Shown: positions 8,792 through 41,863 of the stretch, one piece after another | How positions within the stretch are numbered: position 1 is the first letter of the stretch | How the letters are laid out: every line of letters begins with the position of its first letter | Assembly: GCA_964483665.1 (NCBI GenBank) | Contig: CAZACP010000005.1 | Location: 1,910 to 65,909, forward strand | Reading direction: 5' to 3' | Length of the DNA: 64,000 nucleotides | Source of the DNA: an uncultured Candidatus Saccharibacteria bacterium | GTDB taxonomy: Bacteria > Patescibacteriota > Doudnabacteria > UBA920 | Notes under the pieces: model-generated | The model's input: only the letters and a program-made list of their open reading frames with translations | Database searches by the model: none | What the model was told of the DNA's origin: nothing | Translations under genes and position numbers: made by a program

Positions 8792-8797
8792 CAGATA

Positions 8798-12767: not shown

Positions 12768-12852
12768 CTTACGTTGTCCAAAACCGGAAGCCGGGTTAAG
12801 TTGAGGTAAATCTCTCTCACCAAAGCCAGAAAAGTTTTCCACCTGTCTCGAC

Positions 12853-12951: not shown

Positions 12952-12991
12952 TAATCCCGTACCGTATGGTACTGGGATACCAAAATCTTAT

Positions 12992-13243: not shown

Positions 13244-13250
13244 TAGCACC

Positions 13251-13280
13251 CGAAAGGGTGTTTTTGATTTGGTTTTATTG
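13251..13280. repeat. 30-bp segment CGAAAGGGTGTTTTTGATTTGGTTTTATTG (copy 1; with CACCC 5' arm forms terminator hairpin)
   Basis: Exact second copy at 13860-13889. Confidence 0.7.
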
Positions 13281-13368
13281 ATGAAGGAATGGTTTTCCAA
13301 AATTTTGGTGTGTAGAAACTTTTTACAAATAAGCGTATAATTAAGACAAATTAGTTTTCAACCATTAG

Positions 13369-14404: not shown

Positions 14405-14425
14405 ATTAGGTTAATTTTATTAATT

Positions 14426-24781: not shown

Positions 24782-25588
24782 ATGATTATTAAGTATATTA
24801 ATTTGAATATTTGGATGGGGGAGCTTTTTAAAAGTACCCTGCAATTTTTAAAAGAACAAAAAGCTGACATTGTGGTTTTGCAGGAAGTAATGCACCATGA
24901 GAATGCGGAAAAATTGTCTTTAAAGCATCAGACTAAAGTTATTTTAGAAAGAGAGTTGGGTTTAAAATACAGCGAGTATTTTCCTTTAGTTTTAGACAAA
25001 AGGTTTAATCCGCCCGCGCTATTTGGCAACCTGATTTTGTCTAGGTTTCCTATAGAAAATAGCAAGAAAGTTTTTTTTGACCGCCCGTTTCGGGAATGGG
25101 ACAACAGTTTGCCAAATGAGGAATTTACTCGCGGTCTTTTGGTTTGTGAAATTAATGTAAATAATACTTTGCTAACCGTGGGAAACATTCACGGTATATG
25201 GGGCAAACATGGGGCAGATACCGACAGAAGGCTGAATATGATAGATATTGTGCTTAAAGAGTTAAAGGGTCAAGAGCGGGTAATTTTGTCAGGCGACTTT
25301 AATTTAAATGAAAGGGTGTATCCGGAAATTAACGGTAAAGCGGATTTGTCTAAACCGCAAAGAACAAAATCGGTGGCTTTGCTTGAAGAAAAATTTGTAA
25401 ATATTTTTAAGGACGAACGCATAACTTCTTTTAATCCAAATTATAAAGATTTTGTTACTACAGGTTACGCACACGCTGTAGTTGATATGGTTTTTGTAAC
25501 GCCAAATATTAAAATTTTGTCGCACATACAGCCCGATGTTGACGTTTCTGATCACATGCCGCAAATTGTTGAACTGGAAATAAACTAA
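24782..25588 (+). CDS. endonuclease/exonuclease/phosphatase (EEP) family protein
   Basis: DIVVLQEV, GNIHG, SGDFNL, SDHMP motifs. Confidence 0.55.
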   Translation: MIIKYINLNIWMGELFKSTLQFLKEQKADIVVLQEVMHHENAEKLSLKHQTKVILERELGLKYSEYFPLVLDKRFNPPALFGNLILSRFPIENSKKVFFDRPFREWDNSLPNEEFTRGLLVCEINVNNTLLTVGNIHGIWGKHGADTDRRLNMIDIVLKELKGQERVILSGDFNLNERVYPEINGKADLSKPQRTKSVALLEEKFVNIFKDERITSFNPNYKDFVTTGYAHAVVDMVFVTPNIKILSHIQPDVDVSDHMPQIVELEIN

Positions 25589-25664
25589 CGACCACGGATA
25601 TTTACAGAAAAACACGGAGTTTAGATCCGTGTTAGTCTGTTTTTGTGTCCGTGTTGATCGGTTT

Positions 25665-26222
25665 TTATTGCGCTACCCTTTCCACGTACTGGCCGTCTCT
25701 TGTGTCTACTTTTAATATGTCGCCTTCTTTTATAAACATTGGTACGTCTACCACGTGGCCGGTTTCTAAGGTTACAGGTTTAGTTACATTGCCGCCGCTG
25801 TTGCCTTTGGTGTCGGGGGGAGCCTGGGTAACTTTGAGCTCAACTTTTATAGGCAGTTCTATTGAAACGGGGTTGCCGTTAAATTTTAGAATGGAAACTT
25901 CCATGCCTTCTTTTAAGAATTTTTCCTGCTCCTCTGTTACGTCTTTATTTATGTCTACCTGTTCAAAGGTGGTTTGGTTCATAAAGTGCGTACCTTCTGA
26001 ATCTGCGTAAAGAAAGCTGGCTTTTTCCCTTTCAACGTCTGCCTCTTCAATGCTTTCGCCAAATTTGAAGGAGTATTCGTAAACTTTTCCGGTAATTACG
26101 TTTTTTAATTTGGTCTGCATAACCGGTTTTCTTTGCGCTGTGCGCATGCGGTTAGACCAAATAACCTGCACCGGCTGGTTTTCCCATAAGATTATGGTGC
26201 CGATTTTTAAGTCGTTTAAATC
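25665..26222 (-). CDS. efp: elongation factor P
   Basis: MDLNDLKIGTII...KPVMQTKLKNV; ORF-track N-terminal extension rejected, start at MDLNDLK. Confidence 0.85.
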   Translation of the reverse strand, partial: DLNDLKIGTIILWENQPVQVIWSNRMRTAQRKPVMQTKLKNVITGKVYEYSFKFGESIEEADVEREKASFLYADSEGTHFMNQTTFEQVDINKDVTEEQEKFLKEGMEVSILKFNGNPVSIELPIKVELKVTQAPPDTKGNSGGNVTKPVTLETGHVVDVPMFIKEGDILKVDTRDGQYVERVAQ

Positions 26223-26327
26223 CATAAGTGAAATGACAAAAATGACATAATTGACAAAAATGAGCAAAAATTGCTGTATCAAAATTTTGTCAATTTTGAT
26301 TAATTTTATTTAATTTTTTTCAGTAAA

Positions 26328-26588
26328 TTAGGCGCTTACAAACGGCAAGAGCGCCATGTGTCTGGCGTGTTTAAGTGCCAAAGTCACCATTCTTTGGTGT
26401 TTTGGGCAAGATCCGGTTCTGTTGTGACCCATAATTTTTGCATGAGGGGTCATAAAGCGTCTTAATACCGCTGTATCTTTGTAGTCTACAGTGGTCATTT
26501 TGTTGGAGCAAAAATAACACTGTTTTTTAACCGCAGGCTGGGAATCCCTGCTGTTTCGATTGTTGTAATGGTTGTTGTTAGGGCGCAT
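26328..26588 (-). CDS. rpsR: 30S ribosomal protein S18
   Basis: CYFC...VDYKD...RFMT..KI...RTG.C.KHQR...A.K.AR..ALLP pattern. Confidence 0.8.
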   Translation of the reverse strand: MRPNNNHYNNRNSRDSQPAVKKQCYFCSNKMTTVDYKDTAVLRRFMTPHAKIMGHNRTGSCPKHQRMVTLALKHARHMALLPFVSA

Positions 26589-26697
26589 AAATGAATTTAA
26601 TAATTGATCAAAATTAAGTAAAATTAAATAAAATTGAAATACAAAAATGCAGTTTAATTTTACTTAATTAATAAATTTTACTTAATTTTATTTAATT

Positions 26698-27216
26698 CTA
26701 AAATGGAATGTCTTCTACTCTTACTCCTTCGTCGCTGCCTTGGTCTATGGTCGGCAGTTCTTCCTCCTTCGCTAAAGCTCCGAAGGATGAATTGGTAGGC
26801 ATTGGGGCTGCGGCAGGGGAAGCGGCCGCAAATGCGGGTTTAGCAGCAGCCGGAGCAAAAGAACCAGAAGGAGCTGATCCTGCCGGGCGGTCGCCCAGCA
26901 TTATCATGTTATCGGCTACTATTTCGGTTCTGTAGCGTTTTTGCCCGTCCTGCCCGTCCCAGGAACGAGTTTGAAGGCGCCCTTCAATGTAAACCCTGGC
27001 GCCTTTTTTTAAATACTGAGCCGCAATTTCACCCAGCTTTCGCCAGAGGACCACGTTATGAAATTCAGTAGATTCAACTTTCTGGCCGGTTTGCTGGTTG
27101 GTATAAACGTAGCCGGTCGCTACGCCCATTTGGCAGACACTGGCGCCGGAAGGGATGGTTCTAAGTTCAGGGTCGCGTGTTAAGCGGCCTATTATCATAA
27201 CTTTGTTTAAGTCCAT
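26698..27216 (-). CDS. ssb: single-stranded DNA-binding protein
   Basis: OB-fold N-terminus MDLNKVMIIGRLTRDPELR, Gly/Ala-rich linker, acidic DIPF tail. Confidence 0.85.
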   Translation of the reverse strand: MDLNKVMIIGRLTRDPELRTIPSGASVCQMGVATGYVYTNQQTGQKVESTEFHNVVLWRKLGEIAAQYLKKGARVYIEGRLQTRSWDGQDGQKRYRTEIVADNMIMLGDRPAGSAPSGSFAPAAAKPAFAAASPAAAPMPTNSSFGALAKEEELPTIDQGSDEGVRVEDIPF

Positions 27217-27284
27217 AAGTTTTAGAAATTTTTAATTATCAATTTTTAATTTTTAAATAATTTACAAAATTAAAAATTTAAAAA

Positions 27285-27773
27285 TTATTTCGTTAAGTCC
27301 TCAGTTAACGCTTCTTCGATTTTTTTGTCCAAAGCCGCGTCGTCTATGTCTTCAAGTTTTAATGCAGGCTTTTCTTCTTTAACTTTTTCTATAGGCATAG
27401 CCTTTGCCACTTCCGCGTTAGTTTCGACGGTGCGTTTTGAAAGCTTGGCTTGCGCGACTTTGTCTTTAGCCAGGCGTTTAATATGCTCGTCTTGGTTAAC
27501 TAAAATGTAACGAATAATGTCGTGTTCTTGGGTGCGAATACGGGCATCGAGTTCGTTAACTTTTTTGCCGTCCATATTAAAATTCACCACAACATATACG
27601 CCGTTGCGGGTTTTTTTAATTGGGTAGGCTAGTTTTTTCTTACCTAAGTTTTCTTCCTTGACGTCTGTGCCTTGGAAGTCCGAAATATGTTTTAGTACTC
27701 TCTGGGAAATAGCCGGCACGTCTGTGTCAGCTACATGTGACCCTAAAAGGTACATAAGTTCATACTTTGGCAT
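27285..27773 (-). CDS. rpsF: 30S ribosomal protein S6 with acidic C-terminal extension
   Basis: MPKYELMYLL start, conserved rpsF-ssb-rpsR order. Confidence 0.8.
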   Translation of the reverse strand: MPKYELMYLLGSHVADTDVPAISQRVLKHISDFQGTDVKEENLGKKKLAYPIKKTRNGVYVVVNFNMDGKKVNELDARIRTQEHDIIRYILVNQDEHIKRLAKDKVAQAKLSKRTVETNAEVAKAMPIEKVKEEKPALKLEDIDDAALDKKIEEALTEDLTK

Positions 27774-27910
27774 AGAAAGATTTCCTTTCTATCCCTGCCC
27801 AGAATAGGGTAGGGAATATGATTAATTGTTTACAAATTATAGCAATTATAGGGGGTTTTGTCTATTGACTTTTTTATTTAAATATGATTTAATACACCTT
27901 AATTACAAGG

Positions 27911-28240
27911 ATGAATAAACTACTATGCTTAGTTTTCCTGGTTCTGAGCCAATTTGGCTCAGGGCAGGCACCAACAACTCTCTCCAAGGCGTGCGTGGCT
28001 GAGTTTGAAAATTCTTTGGAGATTTACTTCGAGGAGCATGTCTGGGCTCCGGAAGGAGTAAAAACCGTCAAACAGACAGCACAGCTCCGCCTTGGCTACG
28101 TAGCCGGAAAGACGGCGGTCTGTTGGGATGACCGTTGCGGTCCGGCCGCAGAAGATTATCGTATCACGGTAACAACCGTTAGTACGAGAAAGTTGTTACG
28201 CTTCACTGTCATGGGGAATAAGTGGATTCGTAATAAGTAG
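27911..28240 (+). CDS. hypothetical secreted protein in GC-rich island
   Basis: Signal peptide, Cys-containing; local GC ~50% vs ~38% background. Confidence 0.35.
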   Translation: MNKLLCLVFLVLSQFGSGQAPTTLSKACVAEFENSLEIYFEEHVWAPEGVKTVKQTAQLRLGYVAGKTAVCWDDRCGPAAEDYRITVTTVSTRKLLRFTVMGNKWIRNK

Positions 28241-28416
28241 TCAATCGAGTAGAAATACTCGAATTCTTTTGGTGTGTACAATGGGCTGTGCACACCAATT
28301 TTTTTGTCTATAGACAAAAATTGGCATTTAATTTAAACTTTTCCTAGGAGTATTCGACCCCGTTCTGACGACGGGGTTAGATTTTTGGTGGAGTAAAATG
28401 AGAAGGAGGTTTCTTT

Positions 28417-28857
28417 GTGGATACGTTGAATACGTTTGGTTGGCTTCCGCTCTGTGTCGTGGTGTGTGGACTGGTGGCAGGCTGGTTATTTTTTCAGAAC
28501 ACAATCAAGAAAGACGATCCAGGTAAGGATGTAATAAGGACTTTGGCTGGCGCCCTGCTGTGCTTTGCGCCTTTTGTTTGGCGTCAGATGTCTGGCGGCA
28601 CTAGTATGGAGTATTCGCTCCTGCTGCTCTGTTTTACCGGGGGATTTTCCTTTTTGATCTTCCAAGGCCTGCTTACACAAAGTAAGCACGTGGGTAAAGA
28701 CAGAGATCATGGGCTGATGCCTGTGTCCGTGCTAAGTCTTGTCATGTGCTCATTTCTGGTGCTTGGCTATGGTTTTTTGAGCTGGTACGACCAGCATCAG
28801 ATCGCGCGCGCGTCTTCAGTGGGCAAATCCGCACCACCAACACCATTCAAGAAGTGA
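28417..28857 (+). CDS. hypothetical 4-TM membrane protein in GC-rich island
   Basis: 146-aa ORF, hydrophobic; GC-rich. Confidence 0.35.
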   Translation: MDTLNTFGWLPLCVVVCGLVAGWLFFQNTIKKDDPGKDVIRTLAGALLCFAPFVWRQMSGGTSMEYSLLLLCFTGGFSFLIFQGLLTQSKHVGKDRDHGLMPVSVLSLVMCSFLVLGYGFLSWYDQHQIARASSVGKSAPPTPFKK

Positions 28858-28872
28858 GTCAACTATAGCAGA

Positions 28873-28919
28873 GACCCCCCAGGGTTCATTATGAATTTTG
28901 GGGGGTCGTGTGTTTTTTG
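28873..28919 (+). terminator. rho-independent terminator
   Basis: GACCCCCCAGGG...TGGGGGGTC stem then TTTTTT. Confidence 0.5.
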
Positions 28920-29100
28920 TTAATTAAACGTTAAACAGAAAATGCACTACATCACCATCTTCTCGTCAGACTTGCTTCCGCCCGTTCGTTTTGGCTTTTA
29001 GCCAAAAATCACAGGCTTCAGAAGTCTTCCTCTTCCCAAAAATCCGTGCTCGTCACGCCAAGTATTGGCGGAGGACTCGGGCTCCTAATTTTCGGGAGCC

Positions 29101-30261
29101 CTAAGTATTGAAGCGAAAGTGTACCACATCGCCATCTTGTATTATATATTCTTTACCTTCAACTCTTAACCATCCTTTATCTCTTGCACCCGCGTACCCT
29201 TTCGCTTCAAGGAGCTTGTCCCATTGTATAACTTCTGCGCGTATGAAGCCTTTTTCAAAGTCAGTGTGGATTTTGCCCGCCGCTTGAGGCGCCTTTGAGC
29301 CGGCAGTACATGTCCAGGCTTTGCTTTCTTTTGGCCCGGCGGTTATGAACGTTATAAGGCCTAAAGTTTTGTAGGCCTGTTTAATTATTTTGTCTAACCC
29401 TGACTCGGGTAGTCCGAGTTCTTTTAAATATTGCTGTCTATCGGCGTCATCGAGTTCGGCGAGTTCAGATTCTAATTGAGCGTCGATGATAATCATACCG
29501 GCGTCATCCTGAACGCCGAGGCTTTGCGAGGCGTGAAGGATCCCTTCCTTGCTTTTAAGAGATTCTTCGGCCTCGGATGCACTCGGCCTCAGAATGACGT
29601 CATTGGAGGCGTAGTTTTTTTTATCTAAATCAAACTTTTCATTCGCCACAAACATTATAGGTTTGGTAGTAAGCAGCTGAATGTCTTTACTGTGTTCTTT
29701 TTCTTCATCGGTCAGGGTAACTGTATTGGCCATTTCGCCTTTTTCAAGCGCGGCTTTATATTTTTCCAAAATTCCTTTTTTAATTACAGCTTCGCGCTCG
29801 CCGCTCTTTACCTGGCGGGCGAGTGTGCTAAGTCTGTTTTCTATGTTTTGCAAGTCTGCCAATTGCAGTTCTATGCCAATAGTTTCCATATCGCGCTTTG
29901 GGTCAACCGAGCCGTTTACGTGAATAATGTCTTTACTTTCAAAAAAGCGTACTACTTCCATTATGGCGTCTACTTCACGAATATGAGAAAGAAATTTGTT
30001 GCCCAAGCCTTCGCCCGTGCTTGCGCCTTTAACCAAGCCTGCTATGTCTACGAATTCTATGGTGGTTGGCACAACTTTTTCTGATTTTTCCAATTCAGCT
30101 AGCTTGGCTAGCCTTTTGTCGGGCACGGCAACCACGCCTACGTTTGGGTCTATGGTGGCAAACGGGTAGTTAGCGGCTTCGACTTTACTTTTGGTAATGG
30201 CGTTAAAGAGGGTGCTTTTGCCTACGTTTGGCAAGCCCACAATGCCGATTTTAAAACTCAT
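29101..30261 (-). CDS. ychF: ribosome-binding ATPase YchF (Obg-family GTPase)
   Basis: G1 GLPNVGKST, TGS C-terminal domain; 386 aa with an internal insertion. Confidence 0.85.
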   Translation of the reverse strand: MSFKIGIVGLPNVGKSTLFNAITKSKVEAANYPFATIDPNVGVVAVPDKRLAKLAELEKSEKVVPTTIEFVDIAGLVKGASTGEGLGNKFLSHIREVDAIMEVVRFFESKDIIHVNGSVDPKRDMETIGIELQLADLQNIENRLSTLARQVKSGEREAVIKKGILEKYKAALEKGEMANTVTLTDEEKEHSKDIQLLTTKPIMFVANEKFDLDKKNYASNDVILRPSASEAEESLKSKEGILHASQSLGVQDDAGMIIIDAQLESELAELDDADRQQYLKELGLPESGLDKIIKQAYKTLGLITFITAGPKESKAWTCTAGSKAPQAAGKIHTDFEKGFIRAEVIQWDKLLEAKGYAGARDKGWLRVEGKEYIIQDGDVVHFRFNT

Positions 30262-30579
30262 AAACTTTACGGGTTACAAATAAATACGGATATACAGATA
30301 ACTACACGTTCTGTAGGCATCTGTAGTGTTTCCACCGTAGAGTATTGTAGAGGAATTTTGGGTTTTAGGAAAGAGTGATTTGACTAAAAATATTACGGGT
30401 GTATGCTTAAAGCAAAGAAAGCTACGGGGCTAAAAACCCCCTGCGCAAACTTTGGACCAAGGCCATCCTCTCACCGGAAGAAACGGTATCCTTAAAGCAC
30501 TGAGCGCCAAGAGGAGTATAGAGGTGGAACAGCTGGTCTTAAGTGGGCATCTTTAAAACCTGTTAGGAGGGTTAAGAAG

Positions 30580-31353
30580 ATGTTCGAAAATGAGGTTCGT
30601 TTTAAAACCGGCAGCCGGTGGAGTTTTCCAATGGCTGTGGTAGTGGTAATGGCTGTTTTGGCGTTGTTGGTTTTGGCCAGCAGCGTCAAGGGCGGGGTTA
30701 AAACCGTAAGGCAGAAAGAAAAAATTTACTTGCCCATTGAGCTGAAGCAGTTGCCGGCAAAACAGCCGGCTACTGTGGAGCAAAATAGGGCAGGGATTTC
30801 TAAAGCTTCCGAGCAGCCTTGGGTGGTTGTTAGTAAGCCGACTAAGGTGTTTCGGGCTCCGTCAAGAATTCCCGCGCAGGTGGCGGAAATAAATGACAGA
30901 GATCTCGGGGCGCCGGAAGTGGCTTATGGACATACCGATAATCCAGGTAGTGGTAAGCCCGGGGACAGAGGTTGCCCTGCAGAAGTTTGCGGAAATGTTG
31001 TCAACGTTTCGCCGCCGCCTGTTACCGAAGCAAAGCCAGAGCCAAAAGCTGAACCTTCCGAGCCCGTAAGGGTAAGAAGGGGAGGTGAGGTAATGGCTGC
31101 GCAATTGGTTCGTCAGCCAAAGCCAGTTTACCCGCAGCTAGCCAAAGCGAGTCGGGTTTCGGGATTAGTGCGTCTTACGGCAGTCATTCGCCGTGATGGC
31201 ACTATTTCGGAACTAAGGCTTGTGTCAGGTCATGCGTTGCTGGTGCCCGCTGCCATAGATGCTGTAAAGCAGTGGGTTTACCGCCCAACGCTCCTTAACG
31301 GGGAAGCGGTTGAGGTGGTTACGCAAATAGACGTGCATTTTACGCTTTTGTAG
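30580..31353 (+). CDS. TonB C-terminal-domain protein (N-terminal TM, Pro-rich spacer, TonB_C)
   Basis: PVYPQLAKASRVSGLVRLTAVIRRDGTISELRLVSGHALLVPAAIDAVKQWVYRPTLLNGEAVEV matches the TonB C-terminal fold; GC-rich (~55%). Confidence 0.55.
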   Translation: MFENEVRFKTGSRWSFPMAVVVVMAVLALLVLASSVKGGVKTVRQKEKIYLPIELKQLPAKQPATVEQNRAGISKASEQPWVVVSKPTKVFRAPSRIPAQVAEINDRDLGAPEVAYGHTDNPGSGKPGDRGCPAEVCGNVVNVSPPPVTEAKPEPKAEPSEPVRVRRGGEVMAAQLVRQPKPVYPQLAKASRVSGLVRLTAVIRRDGTISELRLVSGHALLVPAAIDAVKQWVYRPTLLNGEAVEVVTQIDVHFTLL

Positions 31354-31519
31354 TTTGGGTGAATGCGAGGCGTAAATAAGCGTCTGCCAGGATGCTATAG
31401 AGGGGCGGTTCTGAGTGAAGAACTCAGGGCCGCCCAAAATTTAAGCCGTATAGGGCTTTTTATTTCAAACAAGGTTACTTAAAATATTTAAGTTTTTTGG
31501 CGCCTAGACAAAATCTAGC

Positions 31520-31900
31520 TTGTTTTTTTATGCTAAAATAATAAATATGAATAAATTTGAACAAAATCAAAATGGATTTTTAGGGGAAAAACCTATAAAT
31601 AACAACATTTCTTTAGCCAGAATTGAAAATGTGCCGTTTGAAACACTGGAGAGGCTGCATTCAACATTGCGTAAAGCAGGTTTGCTTATAAACAAAGAGC
31701 ATAACCCTAAGACCCCAATTGGGTTTTTATCCCAAAGACTGAATGCTTTAGGTATAACAACTGAGTTAGAAGAAGGAAATGCATTAAAAATTATATTTCC
31801 TACAAAAAATAATAAACTTAGTTCAAGCGTTAAAGGAACATCGGAACAAATTTACAAAGCGTATCTTCATTACGAAAATATTATGAAGAAAAGAAAATAA
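31520..31900 (+). CDS. hypothetical protein
   Basis: 126-aa ORF (possible start at MNKFEQ). Confidence 0.3.
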   Translation: MFFYAKIINMNKFEQNQNGFLGEKPINNNISLARIENVPFETLERLHSTLRKAGLLINKEHNPKTPIGFLSQRLNALGITTELEEGNALKIIFPTKNNKLSSSVKGTSEQIYKAYLHYENIMKKRK

Positions 31901-31903
31901 TTT

Positions 31904-32677
31904 ATGAATTTATATTCAAAAAAACTTATAGTCTTTGATTTAGACGGTACACTTGCGCCGACTAAGGCACAAATGGACGCAGAAATGGCAGAGTTAGTTA
32001 AGCGTTTATTGGAGGTAAAAAAAGTCGCCATAATCGGCGGCGGGAAATTGCAATTATTTAAACACCAATTTTTAAGCCAGTTAAAAATCCCAAAAAATTT
32101 ATACCATAATCTTTTTTTGTTTCCGACTACGGCCACAACCTTTTTAAAATATCAGAAAGGCTGGAAAAAAGTCTACGCGCATAATTTAACCAAGGCGGAA
32201 GTAAAAAAAATCCGCGAAGCTTTTAAAAAAGTATATAAAGAAATAAATTATAAAAATCCGGAAAAAACTTACGGCAAGGTCATAGAAAACCGCGGCAGCC
32301 AGGTGACCTGGTCGGCTTTAGGGCAGGACGTGGTTAAGGCATTGGGTAAAAAGGGGATAGAGCTAAAAAATCAGTGGCGCGACAAAAATACGTCGCTTAA
32401 ATTAAAAATTGCCCAACATTTAAAAAAATACGTGGGTAATTTGGAAGTCCATGCGGCAGGGCATACATCTATAGACGTAACCAAAAAAGGCATAGACAAG
32501 GGTTATGGCCTTCACCAAATAGAAAAATATTTAGGCGTGAAAATTCAAGATATGCTGTTTGTTGGGGACGCTATATTTCCGGGAGGCAATGACTACGCGG
32601 TAGTAAAGACCGGGGTAGATTATAAAAAAGTTAAAGACCCGGAAGAAACCAAAAAAATTATAAAAAGCTTAATATAA
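31904..32677 (+). CDS. HAD-superfamily hydrolase (HAD-IIB/Cof-like)
   Basis: Motif I VFDLDGTL, motif IV GDAIFPGGND. Confidence 0.65.
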   Translation: MNLYSKKLIVFDLDGTLAPTKAQMDAEMAELVKRLLEVKKVAIIGGGKLQLFKHQFLSQLKIPKNLYHNLFLFPTTATTFLKYQKGWKKVYAHNLTKAEVKKIREAFKKVYKEINYKNPEKTYGKVIENRGSQVTWSALGQDVVKALGKKGIELKNQWRDKNTSLKLKIAQHLKKYVGNLEVHAAGHTSIDVTKKGIDKGYGLHQIEKYLGVKIQDMLFVGDAIFPGGNDYAVVKTGVDYKKVKDPEETKKIIKSLI

Positions 32678-32714
32678 AAAAAGAGAGATGGCAGTCGTGG
32701 GGTACGACTGCCGC

Positions 32715-33369
32715 CTAAATGCGTGCTTGCCGGCAAGCTGCCGAGGGGTACACCAGCAGAGGCGTTGGGTCGCTCATAGCCTCTTGTAAATGCCAGGTGT
32801 TGTGTAAGCGTACCGCTTGAGCGTCCAATACCCACCAGTTGATGCGTGTTTGGTGCAGGTTTTGAATCGTAAAGTACACCTTTGCGAAAACTCTGCTATC
32901 CTTGACTGTAACGCGAGCTCTGGAGAGAAGGCGAAATACCGTCCACGGTTTTTTCATCTTCACAACGTCTTCAATGGAGGTAGCCAGTAGATTTGCGTCT
33001 TCTGGGGAACAGGTTACTATCTCCAAAATCCAAACTTCCTTCCAGGGTATTACTTTAGTTAGCATTGCGATCCCCTTGCTTATTTCGGTACTTTTGTTTC
33101 TTTTTGAGCAAGTTGGTCACCCATGCGGGATTTTGGTTTTCCACCAGTTCGCAACTTTTGACTCCCGAGTTTTTTCCGCTACCTTCGGGCATTCTAAGCT
33201 GTCCGTCCATCACTGCGATCAAAAGCGTGTTGCCTTCAAGAATGCTTCTGGCTGTTGGGTGTGGGGTTAGGCCAAAATTTGTTGGCCAGTTGAGGTTGTT
33301 TCTGTACGCGCCGGCTTGGGCGCGGTTGTGGAATGTAACCACCAAAACATGTGTCGCGCAAACCGACAT
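32715..33369 (-). pseudogene. two adjacent same-strand ORFs in different frames (104 aa + 116 aa) in GC-rich patch; probable frameshifted gene
   Basis: ORFs 33055..33369 and 32715..33065 overlap by 11 nt in different frames; GC ~50%. Confidence 0.3.
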
Positions 33370-33424
33370 TTAAGCCTCCTTTCTCTTGTAAACAAAAACC
33401 CCCGCATAAAGCAGGGGCAAATGT

Positions 33425-34402
33425 TTATAAAAGACCAATTTTTTGTTTAACTTCAAGCAGGGTAGCAGAGGCGACTTCGCGGGCGCTGCGCGCGCCATCG
33501 CCTAGGACTTGGGCTAAGTAGTCTGTACGCGATAGTAATTCAGCTTTCTTTTCCCTAAATTCCGCAAAGTAGTTAGTTATATCTTCCGCAAGTTTGGTTT
33601 TTAGCTCGCTGTATTGCAGGTTGCCAAATTCCTGTTTTTCTTTAAAGTATTTTATTTCCGGCGCCTTGCCAAAATGCTCTAGTAAGTACATAAGGTTTTC
33701 CGCGCCTGGGTTTTTGCCGTCTGGGGAAGAACCGGTTACGGCTTTTTTTAGTTTACGCGCTATTTCTTCGGGTGAATCATCTAACAGCAATGCTTCATCT
33801 CCGGTCTTGCTCATTTTTTTGTTTGGATCTGAAAGGGACATTATTCTTAACGGTTTCCTAAGGTAAGTTTTCGGTTCCGGAAAAGTTTGGCCGAATTTGT
33901 TGTTAAATTTTCTGGCTACAACTCTGGCTAGTTCTACATGCTGTATTTGGTCCTCGCCTACGGGAATACTGCTTGGTTTATAAAGCAATATATCGGCCGC
34001 CATTAAAGCAGGGTAGGTTAGAAGCCCGGCATTTATATTTTGTTTATGCTGTTTAGCCTTGTCTTTGTACTGAGTCATTCTTTCAAGTTCCGAAAGGGGG
34101 GTAATGCAATTAAAAATCCAGGCTAAGTAAGCATGCTCCATAACCTGGTTTTGAGCAAAAAATACGGTTTTGTTTGGGTCTATGCCGAGAGCCAAATAAC
34201 TTGCCGCAACCTCTAAGGTATTTTGAGTTAATTCTTTTGGCTCGAAAGGAGTAGTTAAAGCGTGAAGGTCTGCAATAAAATAAAAGCGTTGTAAATTTTC
34301 TGTTTCTTGAGTTTTAAGCAAGTCTTTGACCAAGCCTAAATAATTGCCAATATGTAATTTTCCGCTGGCTCTGCAGCCGGCTACGTAGGTTTCTTTATGC
34401 AT
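33425..34402 (-). CDS. trpS: tryptophan--tRNA ligase
   Basis: HIGN (GKLHIGNYLG) and KMSKT class-I motifs; start set at MHKETY. Confidence 0.8.
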   Translation of the reverse strand: MHKETYVAGCRASGKLHIGNYLGLVKDLLKTQETENLQRFYFIADLHALTTPFEPKELTQNTLEVAASYLALGIDPNKTVFFAQNQVMEHAYLAWIFNCITPLSELERMTQYKDKAKQHKQNINAGLLTYPALMAADILLYKPSSIPVGEDQIQHVELARVVARKFNNKFGQTFPEPKTYLRKPLRIMSLSDPNKKMSKTGDEALLLDDSPEEIARKLKKAVTGSSPDGKNPGAENLMYLLEHFGKAPEIKYFKEKQEFGNLQYSELKTKLAEDITNYFAEFREKKAELLSRTDYLAQVLGDGARSAREVASATLLEVKQKIGLL

Positions 34403-34436
34403 AAAATTATTATAGCAAGAATCAAAATACTTGCAA

Positions 34437-34454
34437 AACGCACGGCCGTGCGTT
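34437..34454. promoter_or_regulatory. 18-bp perfect GC-rich palindrome AACGCACGGCCGTGCGTT in divergent promoter region
   Basis: Identical core recurs at 34999-35016. Confidence 0.6.
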
Positions 34455-34472
34455 ATTATAGTAGGGTAATGT

Positions 34473-34997
34473 ATGCCTAAAAAGATAAATACATTTGTCA
34501 ATAATTTTTTATTTTTTTTGGAAGAAGCTTCTAAACTTTTACCCTTGCCTTTTGAAACTCCATATGAATGGACAAAAAAGCAAAGAGGTTTTAGCAATAA
34601 GGGTTACGCGTCTATGTTGTCTAACCTGGGCAAACAAGGGACAATAAAAGTTTTTTCAAAAAATGGCGAGAAATTTTTACAGCTTACTAATAAAGGACAG
34701 TTAGAAGTTTTACTGGCAAAAGCAGCTTTAATTGAGCAAAATAAGTGGGATGGTAAGTGGAGATTGTTTATGTTCGACATTCCTGAAGACCAGCGCGATA
34801 AGCGTGACAAGCTCAGGCGTCTTTTAAAACGAAATAATTTTATTAAGCTTCAGGCTAGTGTGTTTATTAGCCCTTATGCTTTAAACAAACAAGCAATAGA
34901 GTACTTAAAGGAAACAGGACTAGATGAATATATAAGAATATTAAGGGTAGATGCAATTGATAAAGACGAAGATTTAAAAAAGAAATTCAAACTCTAA
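34473..34997 (+). CDS. Cas2-like / PaaX-C-like fold protein, function unknown
   Basis: C-terminal WRLFMFDIPEDQRDKRDKLRRLLKRNNFIKLQASVF resembles Cas2/PaaX_C; no CRISPR array or other cas genes in window. Confidence 0.35.
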   Translation: MPKKINTFVNNFLFFLEEASKLLPLPFETPYEWTKKQRGFSNKGYASMLSNLGKQGTIKVFSKNGEKFLQLTNKGQLEVLLAKAALIEQNKWDGKWRLFMFDIPEDQRDKRDKLRRLLKRNNFIKLQASVFISPYALNKQAIEYLKETGLDEYIRILRVDAIDKDEDLKKKFKL

Positions 34998-35023
34998 AAA
35001 CGCACGGCCGTGCGTTTTTAGAG
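34994..35023. terminator. 30-bp perfect palindrome TCTAAAAACGCACGGCCGTGCGTTTTTAGA (bidirectional terminator between convergent genes)
   Basis: Stem flanked by A/T tracts on both sides. Confidence 0.55.
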
Positions 35024-35093
35024 TAAGGTGATATTCTACAAATTTGTAATATTTTTAAACTAAAACACCCCAAATTTTGGGGTGTTTTGCTGT

Positions 35094-36932
35094 CTATATT
35101 TCAATAATGACCGGCAAGACCATTGGGCGTCTTTCCGTTTTTTGGTAAAGGTATTCGCCGACTTCGTCGCGAATTACATTTCTAAGGTAAGCGTAATTAG
35201 GTTCTAATTTTTCTTTACCCTTAGTTTCCACCAACTTTCTTACTTCGTGTTTAACTTCCCTTATTAAGTCGTCATTTCCTTTCATGTAAATAAAGCCGCG
35301 GGAAATTATGTCGGGTTGGTTAACCAGCTTGCCGTCTCTTCGGTTTAAGGTAATTATAATCACAAACATACCGTCCTGCGCCATAACCTGGCGGTCTCTT
35401 ATAACCACTTCACCCACGTCGCCAACTCCCAGACCATCTATGAACACATAGCCGGAAGCTATTTTTTCGTCGGTAGTGGCTTTGGCTACGCGGTCACTGC
35501 CTACTTCCAGAATTTGGCCGTTGTCTAAAGTAAATATATTGTCGGCCGGAATGCCCATAGTTTTTGCCAATTCCGCGTGTGCCACTATCATATGGTGTTC
35601 GCCGTGGATGGGCATAAAGTATTTGGGCTTGGTCAAAGCTATCATTAGCTTTAACTCTTCCTGGTGCGCGTGGCCGGAAGTATGGATGTCTAAAGTTTTG
35701 TTGTAAATAACATGGCTGCCTAAGCGGGTCAGGTTAGAAAGCATTGCGGAAATAGCCCGTTCATTGCCCGGAATAGGGGAGGCGGAGACAATAGTGGTGT
35801 CGCCCTTTTTAATTTTCACGGTTTTGTGGTCGCCGCGCGCAATTCTGGCAAGTCCGGCCGCTTCTTCGCCTTGGGCGCCGGTAGTTAAAATAACTATTTG
35901 GTTGTCCGGGAATTTTTTAGACTGCTCGGACTTAATAATTATTTTTGGCTGGATTTTTAAGTAACCCAAAGACAAAGCAATTTCAATGTTATTGACCAAG
36001 CTTCTGCCGGTGACTATGACTTTTCTGTTGTATTTTGCGGCAGCGTCAAACACTTGCTGAATACGGGCGATGTTAGTAGAAAAGTTGGCAAAAATAATTC
36101 TACCTTTTATATCCGCAAAAGTTCGGTCTATAGTAATGCCAATCTCCCTTTCGCTAATACAGTAACCGGGCTTAACCGCGTTGGTGGAGTCGGACATTAA
36201 AAGCAATACGCCTTCTGCGCCGAATTTGGCAATTTTGTCGAATTCTGTCGGTTTGCCGTCGGCCGGAGTGTGGTCGAATTTCCAGTCAGTGGCATAAATA
36301 ATTTGCCCGACCGGAGTGGTAATGCATAAACCCATACCGTCCGGAATGCTGTGGTTAGTGCGGAAAAAGCGAATTTTAAAATTACCCAAAGGCAAAACAT
36401 CGTCTTTGGTTAAGACATTTATTTTGCTGCGGCCTAAAAGGCCAAATTCTTCCAAACGTTTTTTTATAAAGCCCGCAGTCAGCGCCATGGTATACACCGG
36501 AGGGTCGCCAAGCTTGGGTAGTATGTAAGGCACCGCGCCAATGTGGTCTAAGTGGCCGTGAGTAATAACTACGCCCCTTATGCGGCGCTTATTTTCTTCC
36601 AGCCACTTGGTGTCGGGAATAATATAGTCTATGCCCGGCATGGTGTCGTCCGGAAAAGCAAGACCCATATCTATGACTATAATGTCATCGCCAAATTCTA
36701 TGGCTGTCATATTTTCACCGACTTCTTCAACGCCACCCATTGGGATAATGCGTAAATTTTGTCTAGAAGCGGTGTATTTGCTGGTTTGGCCAAGGCCGGA
36801 AACCAAGCTGGTGGCCTTGTTAATAAGCATATCTAAACGGTCTGGTTTTTCACCTGTCTTGTTTGCAGGGGAAGAGGACGGAGTCGGCCGATTATGTTGG
36901 CCAAACCGCCTTGGATGTGTTTTTTTTATCAT
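35094..36932 (-). CDS. rnj: ribonuclease J (MBL-fold, beta-CASP) with ~60-aa low-complexity N-terminal extension
   Basis: HxHxDH motif VITHGHLDHIG, beta-CASP motifs, RNase J C-terminal domain. Confidence 0.8.
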   Translation of the reverse strand: MIKKTHPRRFGQHNRPTPSSSPANKTGEKPDRLDMLINKATSLVSGLGQTSKYTASRQNLRIIPMGGVEEVGENMTAIEFGDDIIVIDMGLAFPDDTMPGIDYIIPDTKWLEENKRRIRGVVITHGHLDHIGAVPYILPKLGDPPVYTMALTAGFIKKRLEEFGLLGRSKINVLTKDDVLPLGNFKIRFFRTNHSIPDGMGLCITTPVGQIIYATDWKFDHTPADGKPTEFDKIAKFGAEGVLLLMSDSTNAVKPGYCISEREIGITIDRTFADIKGRIIFANFSTNIARIQQVFDAAAKYNRKVIVTGRSLVNNIEIALSLGYLKIQPKIIIKSEQSKKFPDNQIVILTTGAQGEEAAGLARIARGDHKTVKIKKGDTTIVSASPIPGNERAISAMLSNLTRLGSHVIYNKTLDIHTSGHAHQEELKLMIALTKPKYFMPIHGEHHMIVAHAELAKTMGIPADNIFTLDNGQILEVGSDRVAKATTDEKIASGYVFIDGLGVGDVGEVVIRDRQVMAQDGMFVIIITLNRRDGKLVNQPDIISRGFIYMKGNDDLIREVKHEVRKLVETKGKEKLEPNYAYLRNVIRDEVGEYLYQKTERRPMVLPVIIEI

Positions 36933-37325
36933 AATAATAAAACAATAAAAATTTTCAGATCTATTGCGCTTAGATCTTAAATATTAAATCATCGGCAAGA
37001 AAAAACTTGTTGATGAATCTGAACTTAGTGGCTTATGCAGCCGGGCCAAACTCAGACTTGCTCGCAATTAGCAAACAATAGACCGCAGATACGCAGATCT
37101 AAACAGATCATGCAGATAAATACAAACTATGGTTTGGTAACTGACTTTGGTTTCAAATAAACTAACTAATTTAATACATTATAGCACAGCGGGTGTTGCT
37201 TGTCAACAAGTTTTTTATACAAAAGTCCTTAGGTAAATTACTGGTGCCGCTGAAGAGACCCCGGTACCAGTCACTACGACCCCTAAAGGGGGCGGTTCCG
37301 GTACGGGGCAGGTTTGAACTTAGAA

Positions 37326-37414
37326 TGGTGCTCGAGGTGGGACTTGAACCCACACGGGATTGCTCCCACACGTACCTGAAACGTGCGCGTATGCCAGTTC
37401 CGCCACTCGAGCGC
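37326..37414 (-). tRNA. tRNA-Leu (anticodon CAG), type II with long variable arm
   Basis: Minus-strand GCGCTCGAGTGGCGGAACTGGCA...TTTCAGG...GGGTTCAAGTCCCACCTCGAGCACCA; close to bacterial tRNA-Leu(CAG). Confidence 0.8.
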
Positions 37415-37567
37415 AATTAATGTTTTGTTTGTGTCTGCCAGCTTGCCCCGTAGCGTACCGAGTGCATCCGAGGGACTGCTACTGGGGTTTCGCCACCGCG
37501 GCATGAAGATAGTATAAAGTATTTATTATAAGGTATAAAGGTTTAACTATCTACACATCTGTGGATT

Positions 37568-39361
37568 CTATTTCCAGACTCTTTTAGTATTTATGTACCA
37601 GTTAGGCAGGTCGTAAAAACGGTAAGAGGTGTCGTTTAAACTTGTTAAATTTATATTTTGAACTTTTGAATTTATAAAATAAAAATACTGGTTTTGGTTG
37701 AGCAATATAACAGCATATTTGCCAGAAATGACTTTTCCTAATTCCGAATACTTTGCTAAACGGGCTTCTTGGTTAGTTGTGTTCCGTGCGTCTGTTAATA
37801 GCTTGTCTAAATTTCCGTCGGAAAGTCCGGTTAGGTTAAGACCCGGGTCTTTGCTTTGGCTGGAATGCCAAAAAAAGAACGGATCCGGATCTGCACCGAA
37901 TTTTTGTGAATAAATTAAAACTTGAAATTTACGGGGGCGTAAAGTTTCGTCCATTAACTGTTTGGAAGGTTTTATATCCACATTTATTTCTAAGCCAAGT
38001 TTTTCCCACTGGCTTTTTAAGTTTTGTGCTGTTTCTTTGGCAGAAACTGAATCGCTCGCGGTTATAGTAAGCCCGAGTTTTTGATCTTTTTTCTGCCGTA
38101 TGTTTTCTTGTCCTAATGTCCAACCGGCTTGGTCTAAAATTTTTGCGGCCTCAGGCATATTTGCCGTGTCCGAAATTACTTGCTTGGTTAAAGGGTCGAG
38201 CGGAAGCTGTCTTTCAGATAAATACACCTCGTCTATAATAGCCTGCTTATTGGTAGCTAAATTTAGGCTTTTACGAATAAATTCTTGCGAGGTCAAGCCT
38301 TCATTTAAATTAAAAAATGCGGTTTGATATTGGGGTAAGGGAAGTTTTATCAGCTTGTAATTAGAACTAATGTCGGAAAGGTCTTCTCCGGCAGCCGGTA
38401 AGGAGCCGGCTAAGTCTATTTCTTTTCCTCTTAAGCCGTTTATTATATCCTCAGCCGAATCGTAGAACTTTATATTGAAGGTTTCAATGTTTGGACGGCT
38501 TTTGTAGAAATCATTAAAACTTTTTAAAGTTATAGATTCAATTTTACCGTTGGGAAGCTTTTTTATTTGTGAAATGGCGTAAGGCCCGCTACCCACGGCT
38601 TCTAAATTGGTTTTGTTGAGCAAAAAACCGGAAGCATCAACTTTTTGCCAAATATTTTTCGGCAGAATGGGTAAAGTTAAATTAAAAATAAAAGGTCCGG
38701 AAATGTCTTTATTTATAAATTTGATCTGATTATCGGAAATTTTTTCAACTCTGGTGTTTAGCCAAAAACCGCGCAAAGGACTTTTAAACTCCGGGTTTTT
38801 TAAGGTTTCTACTGTAAAAATTATGTCTTCCACCGTTACCGGGGTATTATTATGCCAAACCGCGTTCTTTTTTAAGGTAATTATGTAGTTTTTTTGGTCA
38901 TCGGAAATTTCAGGCAAATTTTCGGCTAGATCCGGAATTAATTCGCCGTTTGGACCGTATTTATAAAGTCCTGAAAAAATTAATCTTGTTAAGCTTTGAT
39001 CGGTATCTGAAATTGCTAAGAGGGGATTTATGTATTGGGGTTGGCCCAGTAAACCTTCGGTCAACTGTCCGCCAAAAGCCGGAACTATTTTTGTATTACT
39101 AATGTAAAAATTTTTTTCTGACACAAGCAGGCTTATGAGCGCGGCCAAAGTTAGAGCCAAAAGCGCAATTTTTTCGTTTTTGCCCATTAATGAAAAAACT
39201 TTCCGAAGGTCGGAAAGATGGAAGTTTTTTAAGGCTTTAAAACCGCTAACAATTTGCCTTAAGCTTGATATTGGGTTGTGGGAATAACCGTTCATGTTCA
39301 CAGATACACAGATGCCGCAGGTTGCACAGATTCGGATTAAGTAAATCTTATTCAGAATCAA
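37568..39361 (-). CDS. ABC transporter substrate-binding protein, family 5 (peptide/nickel type), membrane-anchored
   Basis: Size and motif pattern of SBP_bac_5; N-terminal TM anchor. Confidence 0.55.
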   Translation of the reverse strand: MILNKIYLIRICATCGICVSVNMNGYSHNPISSLRQIVSGFKALKNFHLSDLRKVFSLMGKNEKIALLALTLAALISLLVSEKNFYISNTKIVPAFGGQLTEGLLGQPQYINPLLAISDTDQSLTRLIFSGLYKYGPNGELIPDLAENLPEISDDQKNYIITLKKNAVWHNNTPVTVEDIIFTVETLKNPEFKSPLRGFWLNTRVEKISDNQIKFINKDISGPFIFNLTLPILPKNIWQKVDASGFLLNKTNLEAVGSGPYAISQIKKLPNGKIESITLKSFNDFYKSRPNIETFNIKFYDSAEDIINGLRGKEIDLAGSLPAAGEDLSDISSNYKLIKLPLPQYQTAFFNLNEGLTSQEFIRKSLNLATNKQAIIDEVYLSERQLPLDPLTKQVISDTANMPEAAKILDQAGWTLGQENIRQKKDQKLGLTITASDSVSAKETAQNLKSQWEKLGLEINVDIKPSKQLMDETLRPRKFQVLIYSQKFGADPDPFFFWHSSQSKDPGLNLTGLSDGNLDKLLTDARNTTNQEARLAKYSELGKVISGKYAVILLNQNQYFYFINSKVQNINLTSLNDTSYRFYDLPNWYINTKRVWK

Positions 39362-39391
39362 GTTTTGTAGTAACCGGCGTCTATTTGGATA

Positions 39392-39610
39392 TCATTTTAG
39401 AAACAGGAAACCTATATTAATTACAACAAATAAAATACCAATTATTATTGTCGCGTAAAAAAGCCATTTATCAAAGCCTCGTCTGGTAGCTACTATGTTG
39501 CCTGCGCCCCCAAAAACATTGGACAAACCGGAAGATTTGTTCTGAAGGGAAATAACAATTATTAATATTACCATTACCAATATGTCAATAAATTGCAGTA
39601 TTTGGCGCAT
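39392..39610 (-). CDS. secG: preprotein translocase subunit SecG
   Basis: 72 aa, two TM, LQ..KSSGLSNVFGG....RRG motif. Confidence 0.7.
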   Translation of the reverse strand: MRQILQFIDILVMVILIIVISLQNKSSGLSNVFGGAGNIVATRRGFDKWLFYATIIIGILFVVINIGFLFLK

Positions 39611-39773
39611 ATTTTATATATTTTAACTTAACTCAACTGGCTTATTGTACAAAGTTTATAAGGCAAAGTCAAGAAGGGGGTTTGAACTGACAAAAATGAC
39701 AAAATCGAGGTAATTGACAAAATTATTTATGCATATTTGATGCCTAAATTATGATTATGTCAATTTTCATCAA

Positions 39774-41675: not shown

Positions 41676-41863
41676 ATTATATCGGCTGTTTGAAAGAGTG
41701 TCTATTTAGCCTTAAAGACTTGTTAATTCTTGACTTCTATGGTAGAATTGCAACTAAGTTTGCAAATTTACGAAATACGAATCGGTACGAATATACTAAT
41801 GAGAATTCCAACGAGTCGTATATTAGTATCCGCCAGCTGGCGGAATTAGTATTTGGTAAAGTT

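Follow-up and report, generated by a model that had tools for sequence, protein, structure and literature searches.

The window analyzed here is a 64,000-nucleotide stretch (positions 1,910 to 65,909 of contig CAZACP010000005.1, assembly GCA_964483665.1) that, judged by gene content and synteny, is a piece of the chromosome of a Candidatus Doudnabacteria bacterium within the Candidate Phyla Radiation (CPR, or Patescibacteria). It contains five short patches of raised guanine-plus-cytosine (GC) content, here called islets. We conclude that the gaps between conserved backbone genes probably act as slots for cargo of one or two genes that is gained, replaced, and lost, and that the GC-rich patches are such horizontally acquired cargo. 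The islet genes appear to be real and expressed-looking, with promoters, ribosome-binding sites, and terminators of the host's AT-rich kind, combined with synonymous codon usage that looks foreign. Two encode a TonB-type protein and a PEP-CTERM surface protein, whose nearest relatives outside the CPR appear to be soil Acidobacteriota (Bryobacteraceae and Solibacteraceae, respectively). Acquired genes in bacteria are usually AT-richer than the core; here, the pattern is reversed, with accessory genes of higher GC than the core genome.

Cargo genes in the gaps of a conserved backbone

RNase J (35094-36932) clusters at ≥90% identity with NCBI proteins labelled Candidatus Doudnabacteria, and a Doudnabacteria metagenome-assembled genome in GenBank (JAEUSF01) has a gene order syntenic with the window. 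Five syntenic relatives, with backbone amino acid identities of 50 to 94%, share the order EF-P, S18, SSB, S6, slot 1, YchF, slot 2, PMM/PGM, slot 3, TrpRS, slot 4, and RNase J, followed by tRNA-Leu, SBP_bac_5 (a substrate-binding protein), SecG, UvrC, and UvrA. Beyond UvrA, the backbone of the window continues with tRNA-Ala, tRNA-Ile, and a type IV pilus cluster (49.7-63.4 kb).

Each islet occupies a different intergenic slot of this syntenic backbone, and relatives have no islet genes or other cargo there, which bears out the proposal of a first-pass annotation that small acquisitions had occurred repeatedly. Their ages differ greatly, however: the TonB gene is old, and a 146-amino-acid (aa) gene is no new arrival. 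The relatives L093 and L096 share 50 to 90% of backbone amino acids with the window and have none of its islet genes. Small genes of other kinds fill their slots (His_Phos_1, DUF559, GIY-YIG, an IS200-type transposase, and short open reading frames [ORFs]), and several of them are likewise 52 to 54% GC in genomes of 40 to 43% GC. L100, with ~84% nucleotide identity along the backbone, keeps the TonB gene and has a wholly different, also GC-rich, cargo in slot 3, composed of families common to L097 and L098; slot-3 families are patchily shared among the relatives. Accordingly, the overlapping 104- and 116-aa genes in this slot of the window look like a lineage-specific replacement; they and the 109-aa gene of islet 1 are species-specific gains.

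Foreign codon usage in short GC-rich islets

The window as a whole has 39.75% GC, and the four highest GC peaks along it (750-bp windows) are exactly the four larger islets. The first-pass annotation had put five patches at 50 to 60% GC against about 38% elsewhere. The patches are real, although measured values are 46.8 to 57.9% against 39.0% outside the five intervals (Table 1); the claimed range is true for the PEP-CTERM islet, borderline for two others, and overstated for two. The remaining GC-rich patches are housekeeping sequences, namely the Ala/Pro-rich tail of SSB (26698-27216; 51.8%), three tRNAs, which stand out by GC in the window and include tRNA-Leu and tRNA-Ile, and RNase J, YchF, and UvrA (44 to 45%). 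In the islets, the GC excess is restricted to the ORFs, and adjoining spacers are mostly 29 to 47% GC; only the 37-bp spacer with the islet-3 terminator hairpin departs from this (57%).

Because amino acid content alone can raise GC, we scored the synonymous choices of each gene against the window's own usage with amino acid content controlled (codon z). The 59 backbone genes have a mean z of -0.11 (standard deviation, 1.36; minimum, -3.87). The islet ORFs have the most atypical codon usage in the window and lie beyond the backbone minimum, except for the 46-aa ORF, which falls inside the backbone range; this per-gene comparison, suggested in the annotation, thus agrees with foreign usage for all but one ORF. 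The gene content read from the letters was likewise recovered: a TonB_C protein, a PEP-CTERM protein, small secreted or membrane ORFs, and the 46-aa ORF. Each patch had also been described as bounded by its own promoter or terminator; what we find is terminator-like hairpins and some promoter-like sites flanking the genes.

Short islets and a PEP-CTERM ORF whose GC matches that of a Solibacteraceae contig could suggest an assembly or binning chimera, in which the assembly of a CPR contig took in reads of a high-GC organism. This explanation is already effectively refuted. The exact PEP-CTERM and TonB proteins recur, with the same neighboring genes, in at least eight independently assembled contigs from different samples (SPAdes, MEGAHIT, and Logan), and DNA across the islet borders is 99.8 to 100% identical over 4 to 8 kb in these assemblies, in keeping with the earlier judgment that this was no single chimeric join. 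Furthermore, the TonB gene sits at the same place in diverged strains or species (L104, L100, L097, and L098), and host-type promoters, ribosome-binding sites, and terminators abut the islet ORFs.

It is also very improbable that the patches are structured noncoding RNAs or introns instead of protein genes. Structured RNAs can be GC-rich in AT-rich genomes, as the tRNAs of the window show, but substitutions in the islets are of the coding type and mostly synonymous, and Pfam domains and a confident protein fold are present. Rfam searches over all islets, at gathering thresholds and relaxed E values, returned only four tRNAs and chance-level matches.

Table 1. Islets, flanking signals, and related loci (window coordinates; GC in %; z, amino-acid-controlled codon score)
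Feature	Position	Strand	GC	Codon z	Description
tRNA-Glu	2268-2342				Abuts large serine recombinase
Large serine recombinase	2309-3835	-			Resolvase, Recombinase, and Zn_ribbon_recom domains
Islet 5 interval	8300-8600		46.8		
Islet 5: 46-aa ORF	8388-8528	+	56	-2.66	
Hairpin after 46-aa ORF	~8553-8578				
Islet 1 interval	27900-28925		46.9		
Islet 1a: 109-aa ORF	27911-28240	+	49	-6.02	GC3 0.52; signal-peptide-like N terminus; several Cys
Terminator-like hairpin after islet 1a	28269-28298	+			12-pair stem, then T run
Islet 1b: 146-aa membrane protein	28417-28857	+	50	-6.32	About four hydrophobic segments by eye
Terminator-like hairpin after islet 1b	28873-28907	+			16-pair stem, then T run
Islet 2 interval	30300-31450		50.5		
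Promoter-like site upstream of TonB gene	30380-30407	+			TTGACT-16-TATGCT; consensus match only
Islet 2: 257-aa full-length TonB-type protein	30580-31353	+		-4.81	N-terminal membrane anchor, Pro-rich spacer, TonB_C domain
Weak terminator-like hairpin after TonB gene	31443-31458	+			Hairpin scan
Islet 3 interval	32700-33400		49.1		
Terminator-like hairpin closing islet 3 operon	32690-32712	-			Hairpin scan
Islet 3, second gene: 116-aa ORF	32715-33065	-		-3.96	11-nt overlap with first gene
Islet 3, first gene: 104-aa ORF	33055-33369	-	49.5	-4.13	GGAGG ribosome-binding site 5' of it
Islet 4 interval	47750-48550		57.9		
GC-rich hairpin between convergent 102-aa gene and PEP-CTERM gene	47694-47727				Read directly from sequence; loop too long for scan
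Islet 4: 248-aa PEP-CTERM protein	47759-48505	-		-9.14	GC3 0.675; signal peptide, ~200-aa CBM-like beta-sandwich, PEP-CTERM anchor
Promoter-like site of PEP-CTERM gene	48584-48612	-			TTGACA-17-TATACT; 11/12 matches; AT-rich, host-like DNA
tRNA-Ala(UGC)	48782-48855	-			Synteny with L102 breaks ~7 bp past 3' end, at PEP-CTERM islet
PEP-CTERM island, L013 (Doudnabacteria)			Gene 55, flank 39		
PEP-CTERM island, L016 (Saccharibacteria)			Gene 57, flank 38		
PEP-CTERM island, L042 (Saccharibacteria)			Gene 58, flank 40.5		Second PEP-CTERM island 3 kb away
PEP-CTERM island, L108			Gene 58, flank 39		
PEP-CTERM island, L109 (Doudnabacteria)			Gene 59, flank 42		Adjoins UvrA
GC3, GC at third codon positions; CBM, carbohydrate-binding module.

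An old acidobacterial-type TonB

The TonB gene of islet 2 matches PF03544 (E value, 4.9e-16; residues 180 to 256) and TIGR01352 (29.5 bits against a cutoff of 27.1). Its product is collinear over its full length with a Bryobacteraceae TonB, from the MFEQ/N start and the anchor through a Pro-rich spacer (PPPV...KPEPK) to the C-terminal domain, the anchor and spacer being judged from the alignment by inspection. Over the last 98 aa, identity is 67 to 71% to sequences of Bryobacteraceae and other Acidobacteria and drops to 60% for L098, the Doudnabacteria orthologue that is most distant; the L098 C-terminal domain itself is 64 to 71% identical to Bryobacteraceae. An organism is named for 6 of the 120 TonB matches listed, and all six are Acidobacteriota.

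Orthologues stand in the same slot, between YchF and PMM, in L104, L100 (91% identity), L097 (74%; genome of 44% GC), and L098 (44%; genome of 62% GC), and L093 and L096 have no TonB gene there; the genomes of the carriers span 43 to 62% GC. Since the gene is common to a subclade in one slot, its gain must be old. We read it as a complete acidobacterial-type TonB that was taken up by the ancestor of this Doudnabacteria subclade and then inherited in place, and a single old transfer from a Bryobacterales-like donor is the most economical account of the sequences. TonB GC3 is 0.73 in L098, below that genome's backbone (0.82 to 0.91), and exceeds the backbone in the 40% GC genomes, as expected if both lineages converge from a donor of ~58 to 60% GC. 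Exchange seems to have continued later: the TonB block (30379-31434) is 89.8% identical to that of L100, against 79 to 84% for neighboring genes, and its synonymous divergence (dS) from L100 is 0.31, against 0.9 to 2.0. This much lower divergence suggests that the cassette was probably re-exchanged between lineages. The ratio of nonsynonymous to synonymous rates (dN/dS), 0.13 to 0.19, indicates that the gene is maintained.

The protein has the full TonB architecture, approximately the Bryobacteraceae length, and the C-terminal domain of the TonB-ExbB-ExbD system of diderm bacteria, but its carrier is a CPR bacterium, and the Pfam and NCBIfam annotations of the window include no ExbB, ExbD, or TonB-dependent receptor. 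Patescibacteria have been reported to have no outer membrane and generally no TonB (PMC7137472), which, together with the absence of these partners from the window, makes a classical TonB function doubtful. In a cell that lacks an outer membrane, the N-terminal anchor would expose the protein at the cell surface.

A PEP-CTERM gene beside tRNA-Ala

Islet 4 is a single gene next to tRNA-Ala. In the close relative L102 (CAZAED01), tRNA-Ile, tRNA-Ala, and PilM are kept, and a GMP synthase stands in place of the islet; homology stops at window position 48775, and the PEP-CTERM gene is absent at that site. The gene is about 59.4 to 59.8% GC, and the spacer upstream (48506-48781) is 36.6% GC, with the ribosome-binding site, too, in AT-rich, host-like DNA. 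On its other side, the GC-rich hairpin probably serves as a bidirectional terminator.

The protein matches PF07589 (E value, 8.9e-6) and TIGR02595 (23 bits against a cutoff of 16), and its tail, VPEPTTLGLIGISLAAIALLRRSRP, has a PEP motif, a hydrophobic helix, and an Arg/Lys cluster. The N terminus, MMKATAFIAFLALGLTVSA/ATIVV, is a signal peptide by inspection, and the AlphaFold (AF2) model, built with 55 homologues, shows an ordered fold from residue 20, a beta-sandwich with a mean predicted local distance difference test score (pLDDT) of 91.6. The ~200-aa domain has no Pfam or PDB match at the sequence level. Its nearest PDB folds are CBM11, CBM4, CBM30, and glycan-binding domains of phage tailspikes (Foldseek E values, 3e-4 to 1e-2; probability, 0.99 to 1.0; target-normalized template modeling [TM] score, 0.45 to 0.53); the best CBM11 and CBM4 matches have a TM score of 0.38 query-normalized and ~0.5 target-normalized, with a root mean square deviation of 5 to 6 Å. 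The likeness to these domains and to CBM22 lies in the beta-sandwich/jelly-roll fold class; sequence identity is only 10 to 14%, and the shared fold class does not establish family membership or a ligand. Because this confidently modeled domain resembles glycan-binding folds, a role in surface glycan binding is plausible but unproven.

Relatives of the domain occur in Chloroflexota, Acidobacteriota, Gemmatimonadota, several CPR groups, and some archaea, with varying C-terminal modules. In high-GC organisms, the gene has the GC of the surrounding genome; in CPR contigs of low GC, the form with a PEP-CTERM tag stands out as an island of one gene, sharply delimited and about 17 to 19 GC points above its surroundings (five loci in Table 1). 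Other subfamilies in low-GC contigs have ameliorated (GC3, 0.18 to 0.40), so the amino acid sequence does not force high GC. In a neighbor-joining tree without support values, the clade of the window's protein branches beside a Solibacteraceae sequence, and a Solibacteraceae model fits the codon usage of the gene better than either host model. This gene appears to be a later gain than TonB, barely ameliorated and inserted beside tRNA-Ala. No homologue was found among IMG/VR viral contigs or PLSDB plasmids, and a scan of metagenome contigs with the clade alignment gave only relatives of ≤54% identity, which served as the amelioration control, and no closer donor.

At two of the other loci, additional genes of this kind were seen. 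L042 (CAZHPR01) has two single-gene GC-rich islands (9989-10759, between TypA and a DNA glycosylase, and 13972-14859), both of PEP-CTERM type and 54 to 63% GC against ~40%. In L109, a 69-aa mini PEP-CTERM ORF (1296-1505; 61% GC; GC3, 0.77) lies between the 256-aa PEP-CTERM homologue and UvrA.

PEP-CTERM proteins are exosortase-sorted surface proteins, as reportedly described by Haft et al. 2006, and Gao et al. 2018 are cited as linking them with floc formation. The protein of islet 4 resembles such substrates in its signal peptide and in its C-terminal PEP motif, hydrophobic helix, and basic tail; it differs in that no exosortase is among the hits within the window, the host is presumably monoderm-like, and the passenger is an unannotated CBM-like beta-sandwich. 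The C-terminal helix may therefore act as a plain membrane anchor that holds the CBM-like domain on the surface. TonB and PEP-CTERM proteins are hallmarks of diderm envelopes, yet here purifying selection maintains them in a lineage presumed to have no outer membrane, which argues that their domains have been reused, probably for surface binding. Most likely, both would bind glycans or envelope components of neighboring or host cells.

Origin of the cargo

Several results weigh against horizontal acquisition or against the donors proposed for it. S18, SSB, EF-P, and RNase J, which are probably highly expressed, have GC3 values from 0.45-0.46 up to 0.51 against ~0.35 for the genome, so part of the compositional signal of the islets could be linked to expression. 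Amino acids alone predict 49.2% GC for the TonB gene (observed, 52.7%) and 50.4% for the PEP-CTERM gene (observed, 59.8%), and about half of the GC excess of TonB over the backbone comes from amino acid content. Polarized TonB substitutions are nearly balanced (51 GC-to-AT and 39 AT-to-GC, a nonsignificant excess), and amelioration is thus not demonstrably in progress. For the islet-3 genes, a host high-GC3 codon model fits about as well as a foreign model.

These observations are what native genes would show if their GC came from secreted proteins rich in Ala, Gly, Pro, Arg, and Trp and from expression-linked C- and G-ending codons. We nevertheless consider an origin without transfer quite improbable. 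The same slots in syntenic relatives are without the genes, amino-acid-controlled z scores lie beyond every backbone gene, and there is phylogenetic affinity to Acidobacteriota; on the high-expression codon model, moreover, islet genes score -1.74 to -1.97, far worse than genuine members of the high-expression set (-1.45 to -1.57).

Further difficulties concern donor and mechanism. A homology search, as the first-pass annotation had advised for finding donor taxa, gave Bryobacteraceae and Solibacteraceae as the nearest labelled relatives but no donor above 76% identity for any islet gene among 5.8 billion proteins. With no close donor, we infer the donor lineage from these relatives and the unsupported neighbor-joining tree, and for two genes only; the 109-, 146-, 104-, 116-, and 46-aa genes have no assigned source. 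The high-GC donor of the annotation therefore survives in part: two genes trace to higher-GC, diderm Acidobacteriota, but a single donor was not borne out. Because most confirmed members of the PEP-CTERM clade are CPR bacteria, that gene could have come most recently from another member of the CPR. Around the four main islets, we found neither an integrase or transposase nor a convincing target duplication, only short, chance-level repeats, so we infer the mechanism of insertion; cargo may have entered by DNA uptake and then recombination, with conserved flanking genes as homology arms.

The question of a CPR donor can be put more broadly: the cargo may belong to a shared CPR pangenome, taken from higher-GC Patescibacteria or Doudnabacteria and circulating through conserved slots, with an acidobacterial origin remote if there was one. 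Much of the exchange described here would suit this account. Syntenic Doudnabacteria relatives range from 37 to 62% GC, the TonB block is closer between lineages than its flanks, a 146-aa allele has been swapped between strains, slot-3 families are patchily common to relatives, and of the eight members that the window's PEP-CTERM clade has outside Solibacteraceae, five are confirmed in CPR contexts; in a published survey, 83% of detected transfers into Patescibacteria came from other Patescibacteria (PMC12455944). We still regard it as a minority possibility. Every islet gene is fitted worst by the codon model of L098, the Doudnabacteria relative of 62% GC, and each Doudnabacteria TonB C-terminal domain resembles Bryobacteraceae more closely than it does the orthologue most distant within Doudnabacteria. 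In addition, CPR copies of the PEP-CTERM protein are 30 to 40% diverged, yet all have a GC3 of 0.60 to 0.68 in genomes of GC3 0.25 to 0.40, a gap that long residence in low-GC CPR bacteria should have erased.

The first-pass annotation had raised the idea of a host as donor. A bolder extension of horizontal acquisition, which we put forward as speculative and rather doubtful, is that the islets are envelope genes captured from the bacterium on which the Doudnabacterium lives. Soil CPR bacteria (Doudnabacteria and Saccharibacteria) would then have taken the PEP-CTERM glycan-binding protein repeatedly and independently from Bryobacterales-type Acidobacteria, the Doudnabacteria subclade would also have taken its TonB from them, and both proteins would be displayed to dock onto, or embed in, the exopolysaccharide or envelope of the host. 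The idea is kept alive by the fact that several CPR lineages carry the same PEP-CTERM gene in un-ameliorated form and that two islets point to Bryobacterales. If it were true, the un-ameliorated GC of the gene, seen in at least five CPR genomes of low GC, would record a CPR-host pairing as a genomic fingerprint. Almost no CPR bacterium from soil or groundwater has a known host, and the two islets would offer Bryobacterales-type Acidobacteria as a concrete host candidate for a Doudnabacteria population if donor identity reflects physical association.

The findings add a further example to a known phenomenon, since horizontal transfer into Patescibacteria, from other Patescibacteria and diverse non-CPR bacteria, has been documented and links to hosts have been proposed from the donors (Gios et al. 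2025, mSystems, PMC12455944). Streamlined CPR genomes, individually transferred genes, and compositionally atypical regions are common to both data sets. The window differs in having single-gene islets of 0.3 to 1.2 kb in fixed slots of a conserved backbone, with cargo GC-richer than the genome; Acidobacteriota are not among the donors in that paper, and TonB and PEP-CTERM are not mentioned there.

Classical genomic islands likewise have atypical composition, here a codon z of -4 to -9, and are absent or replaced in relatives, as in L093, L096, L100, and L102. In contrast, the islets are 0.3 to 1.2 kb long (not ≥10 kb), hold one or two genes, and have no recombinase and only chance-level repeats, islet 5 excepted; insertion next to a tRNA gene is seen for the PEP-CTERM islet only. 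Oliveira et al. 2017 reportedly describe the organization of horizontal transfer along chromosomes in terms of hotspots between core genes. As in such integration and recombination hotspots, a few core-flanked intergenic positions gather unrelated accessory genes, identity jumps at slot borders, and one slot lies beside a tRNA; the differences are a ~1-Mb-class CPR genome, very small cargo, and four main slots without integrase or mobile-element genes.

Small genes of islets 1 and 3

None of the small islet ORFs has a significant match in Pfam, NCBIfam, PHROGs, or PDB sequences. The 109-aa ORF, with zero family matches (Pfam, NCBIfam, and PHROG), is species specific: it is 100% identical in L104, and the same slot is without it in L093, L096, L097, and L098. 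A 14-nt direct repeat (13/14 identical) flanks this gene, at 27856-27869 (TTTTGTCTATTGAC) and 28302-28315 (TTTTGTCTATAGAC); either a target duplication or a second copy of a -35 region might account for it, and it lies within chance expectation.

The 146-aa membrane protein has a 53% identical homologue in the same slot of L097. In L104, a 27% identical, 132-aa allele takes its place, though the flanks are 93 to 99% identical, and identity between the window and L104 falls from 99.2% to 93.3% exactly at this gene. We interpret the jump as a recombination junction at a hypervariable membrane-protein locus, and the gene as a resident of that slot whose alleles are swapped by recombination rather than as a new arrival.

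The overlapping ORFs of islet 3 had been taken for a frameshifted pair, and this we reject. Against L104, the 104-aa ORF has five synonymous differences and one nonsynonymous difference, and the 116-aa ORF has seven and two, so each frame changes mostly at synonymous sites; dN/dS is 0.05 to 0.19 across the TonB gene and both islet-3 ORFs, and the first ORF has a GGAGG site ahead of it. When 1.84 billion representatives were searched exhaustively, the 116-aa ORF had just three weak relatives, two of which are stand-alone proteins of 104 to 107 aa, as half of a frameshifted gene would not be. The pair is thus two overlapping genes, each under purifying selection. The 104-aa ORF matched nothing in the family libraries or PDB. 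A likeness by eye between the 116-aa ORF and a 115-aa slot-3 ORF of L100 was dropped when phmmer gave no confirmation.

Islet 5 and a probable integrated element

Islet 5, whose 46-aa ORF matched no family, probably lies inside an integrated mobile element next to tRNA-Glu (2268-13300), as judged from its gene content, with a large serine recombinase abutting the tRNA. The neighbors of the ORF are an XRE helix-turn-helix protein and an ImmA/IrrE peptidase (7164-8113). No att repeats and no copy of the tRNA-Glu 3' end were found for this element. It also holds an SMC/ABC-like ATPase (10395-12767), and small GIY-YIG ORFs lie at both of its ends (1246-1509 and 12992-13243). Upstream of the ATPase gene, two tandem 88-nt units (10076-10251) are 91% identical; the stop codon of a 272-aa ORF falls in the first few bases of the first copy.

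Other features of the window and its relatives

Cargo turnover is not confined to GC-rich genes. Directly 3' of the TonB gene, slot 2 holds a 126-aa ORF of very low GC (31520-31900; 29%), which is swapped for an unrelated 131-aa ORF in L104 and for GC-rich 91- and 153-aa ORFs in L100; thus, slot 2 also turns over, with cargo that is not always GC-rich. Between TrpRS and RNase J, the window has a 174-aa PaaX_M/Cas2-like protein of low GC (34473-34997; 34%), and relatives have an IS200-type transposase (L096), a ClpB-like fragment (L093), or a 541-aa protein (L100).

Identity between strain L104 and the window is mosaic, at 99.2% over 25034-28408 and 93 to 94% over 28959-43022, with RNase J 99.8% identical and UvrC only 87.7%; in this pair of sequences, the pattern indicates frequent homologous recombination inside the population. 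L098 (CAZLPF010000004.1) is syntenic (YchF, 68%, and RNase J, 81% identical to those of the window) and has 62% GC with a GC3 of 0.8 to 0.9, against 37 to 44% GC in other relatives, a very wide range for one CPR lineage. Its slot genes have lower GC3 than its backbone.

No rRNA adjoins the tRNA-Ile/tRNA-Ala pair (48856-49411 region). The spacer at 48937-49334 is 90.2% identical to L102, against 75 to 81% for flanking coding genes, and matches no Rfam family. This region includes an 80-aa hydrophobic ORF (48913-49155, minus strand) and a remnant resembling a tRNA 3' half (49311-49342; 72% identical to the 3' end of tRNA-Ala), and a 36-nt piece of it (49280-49315) recurs beside tRNA-Leu in L100.

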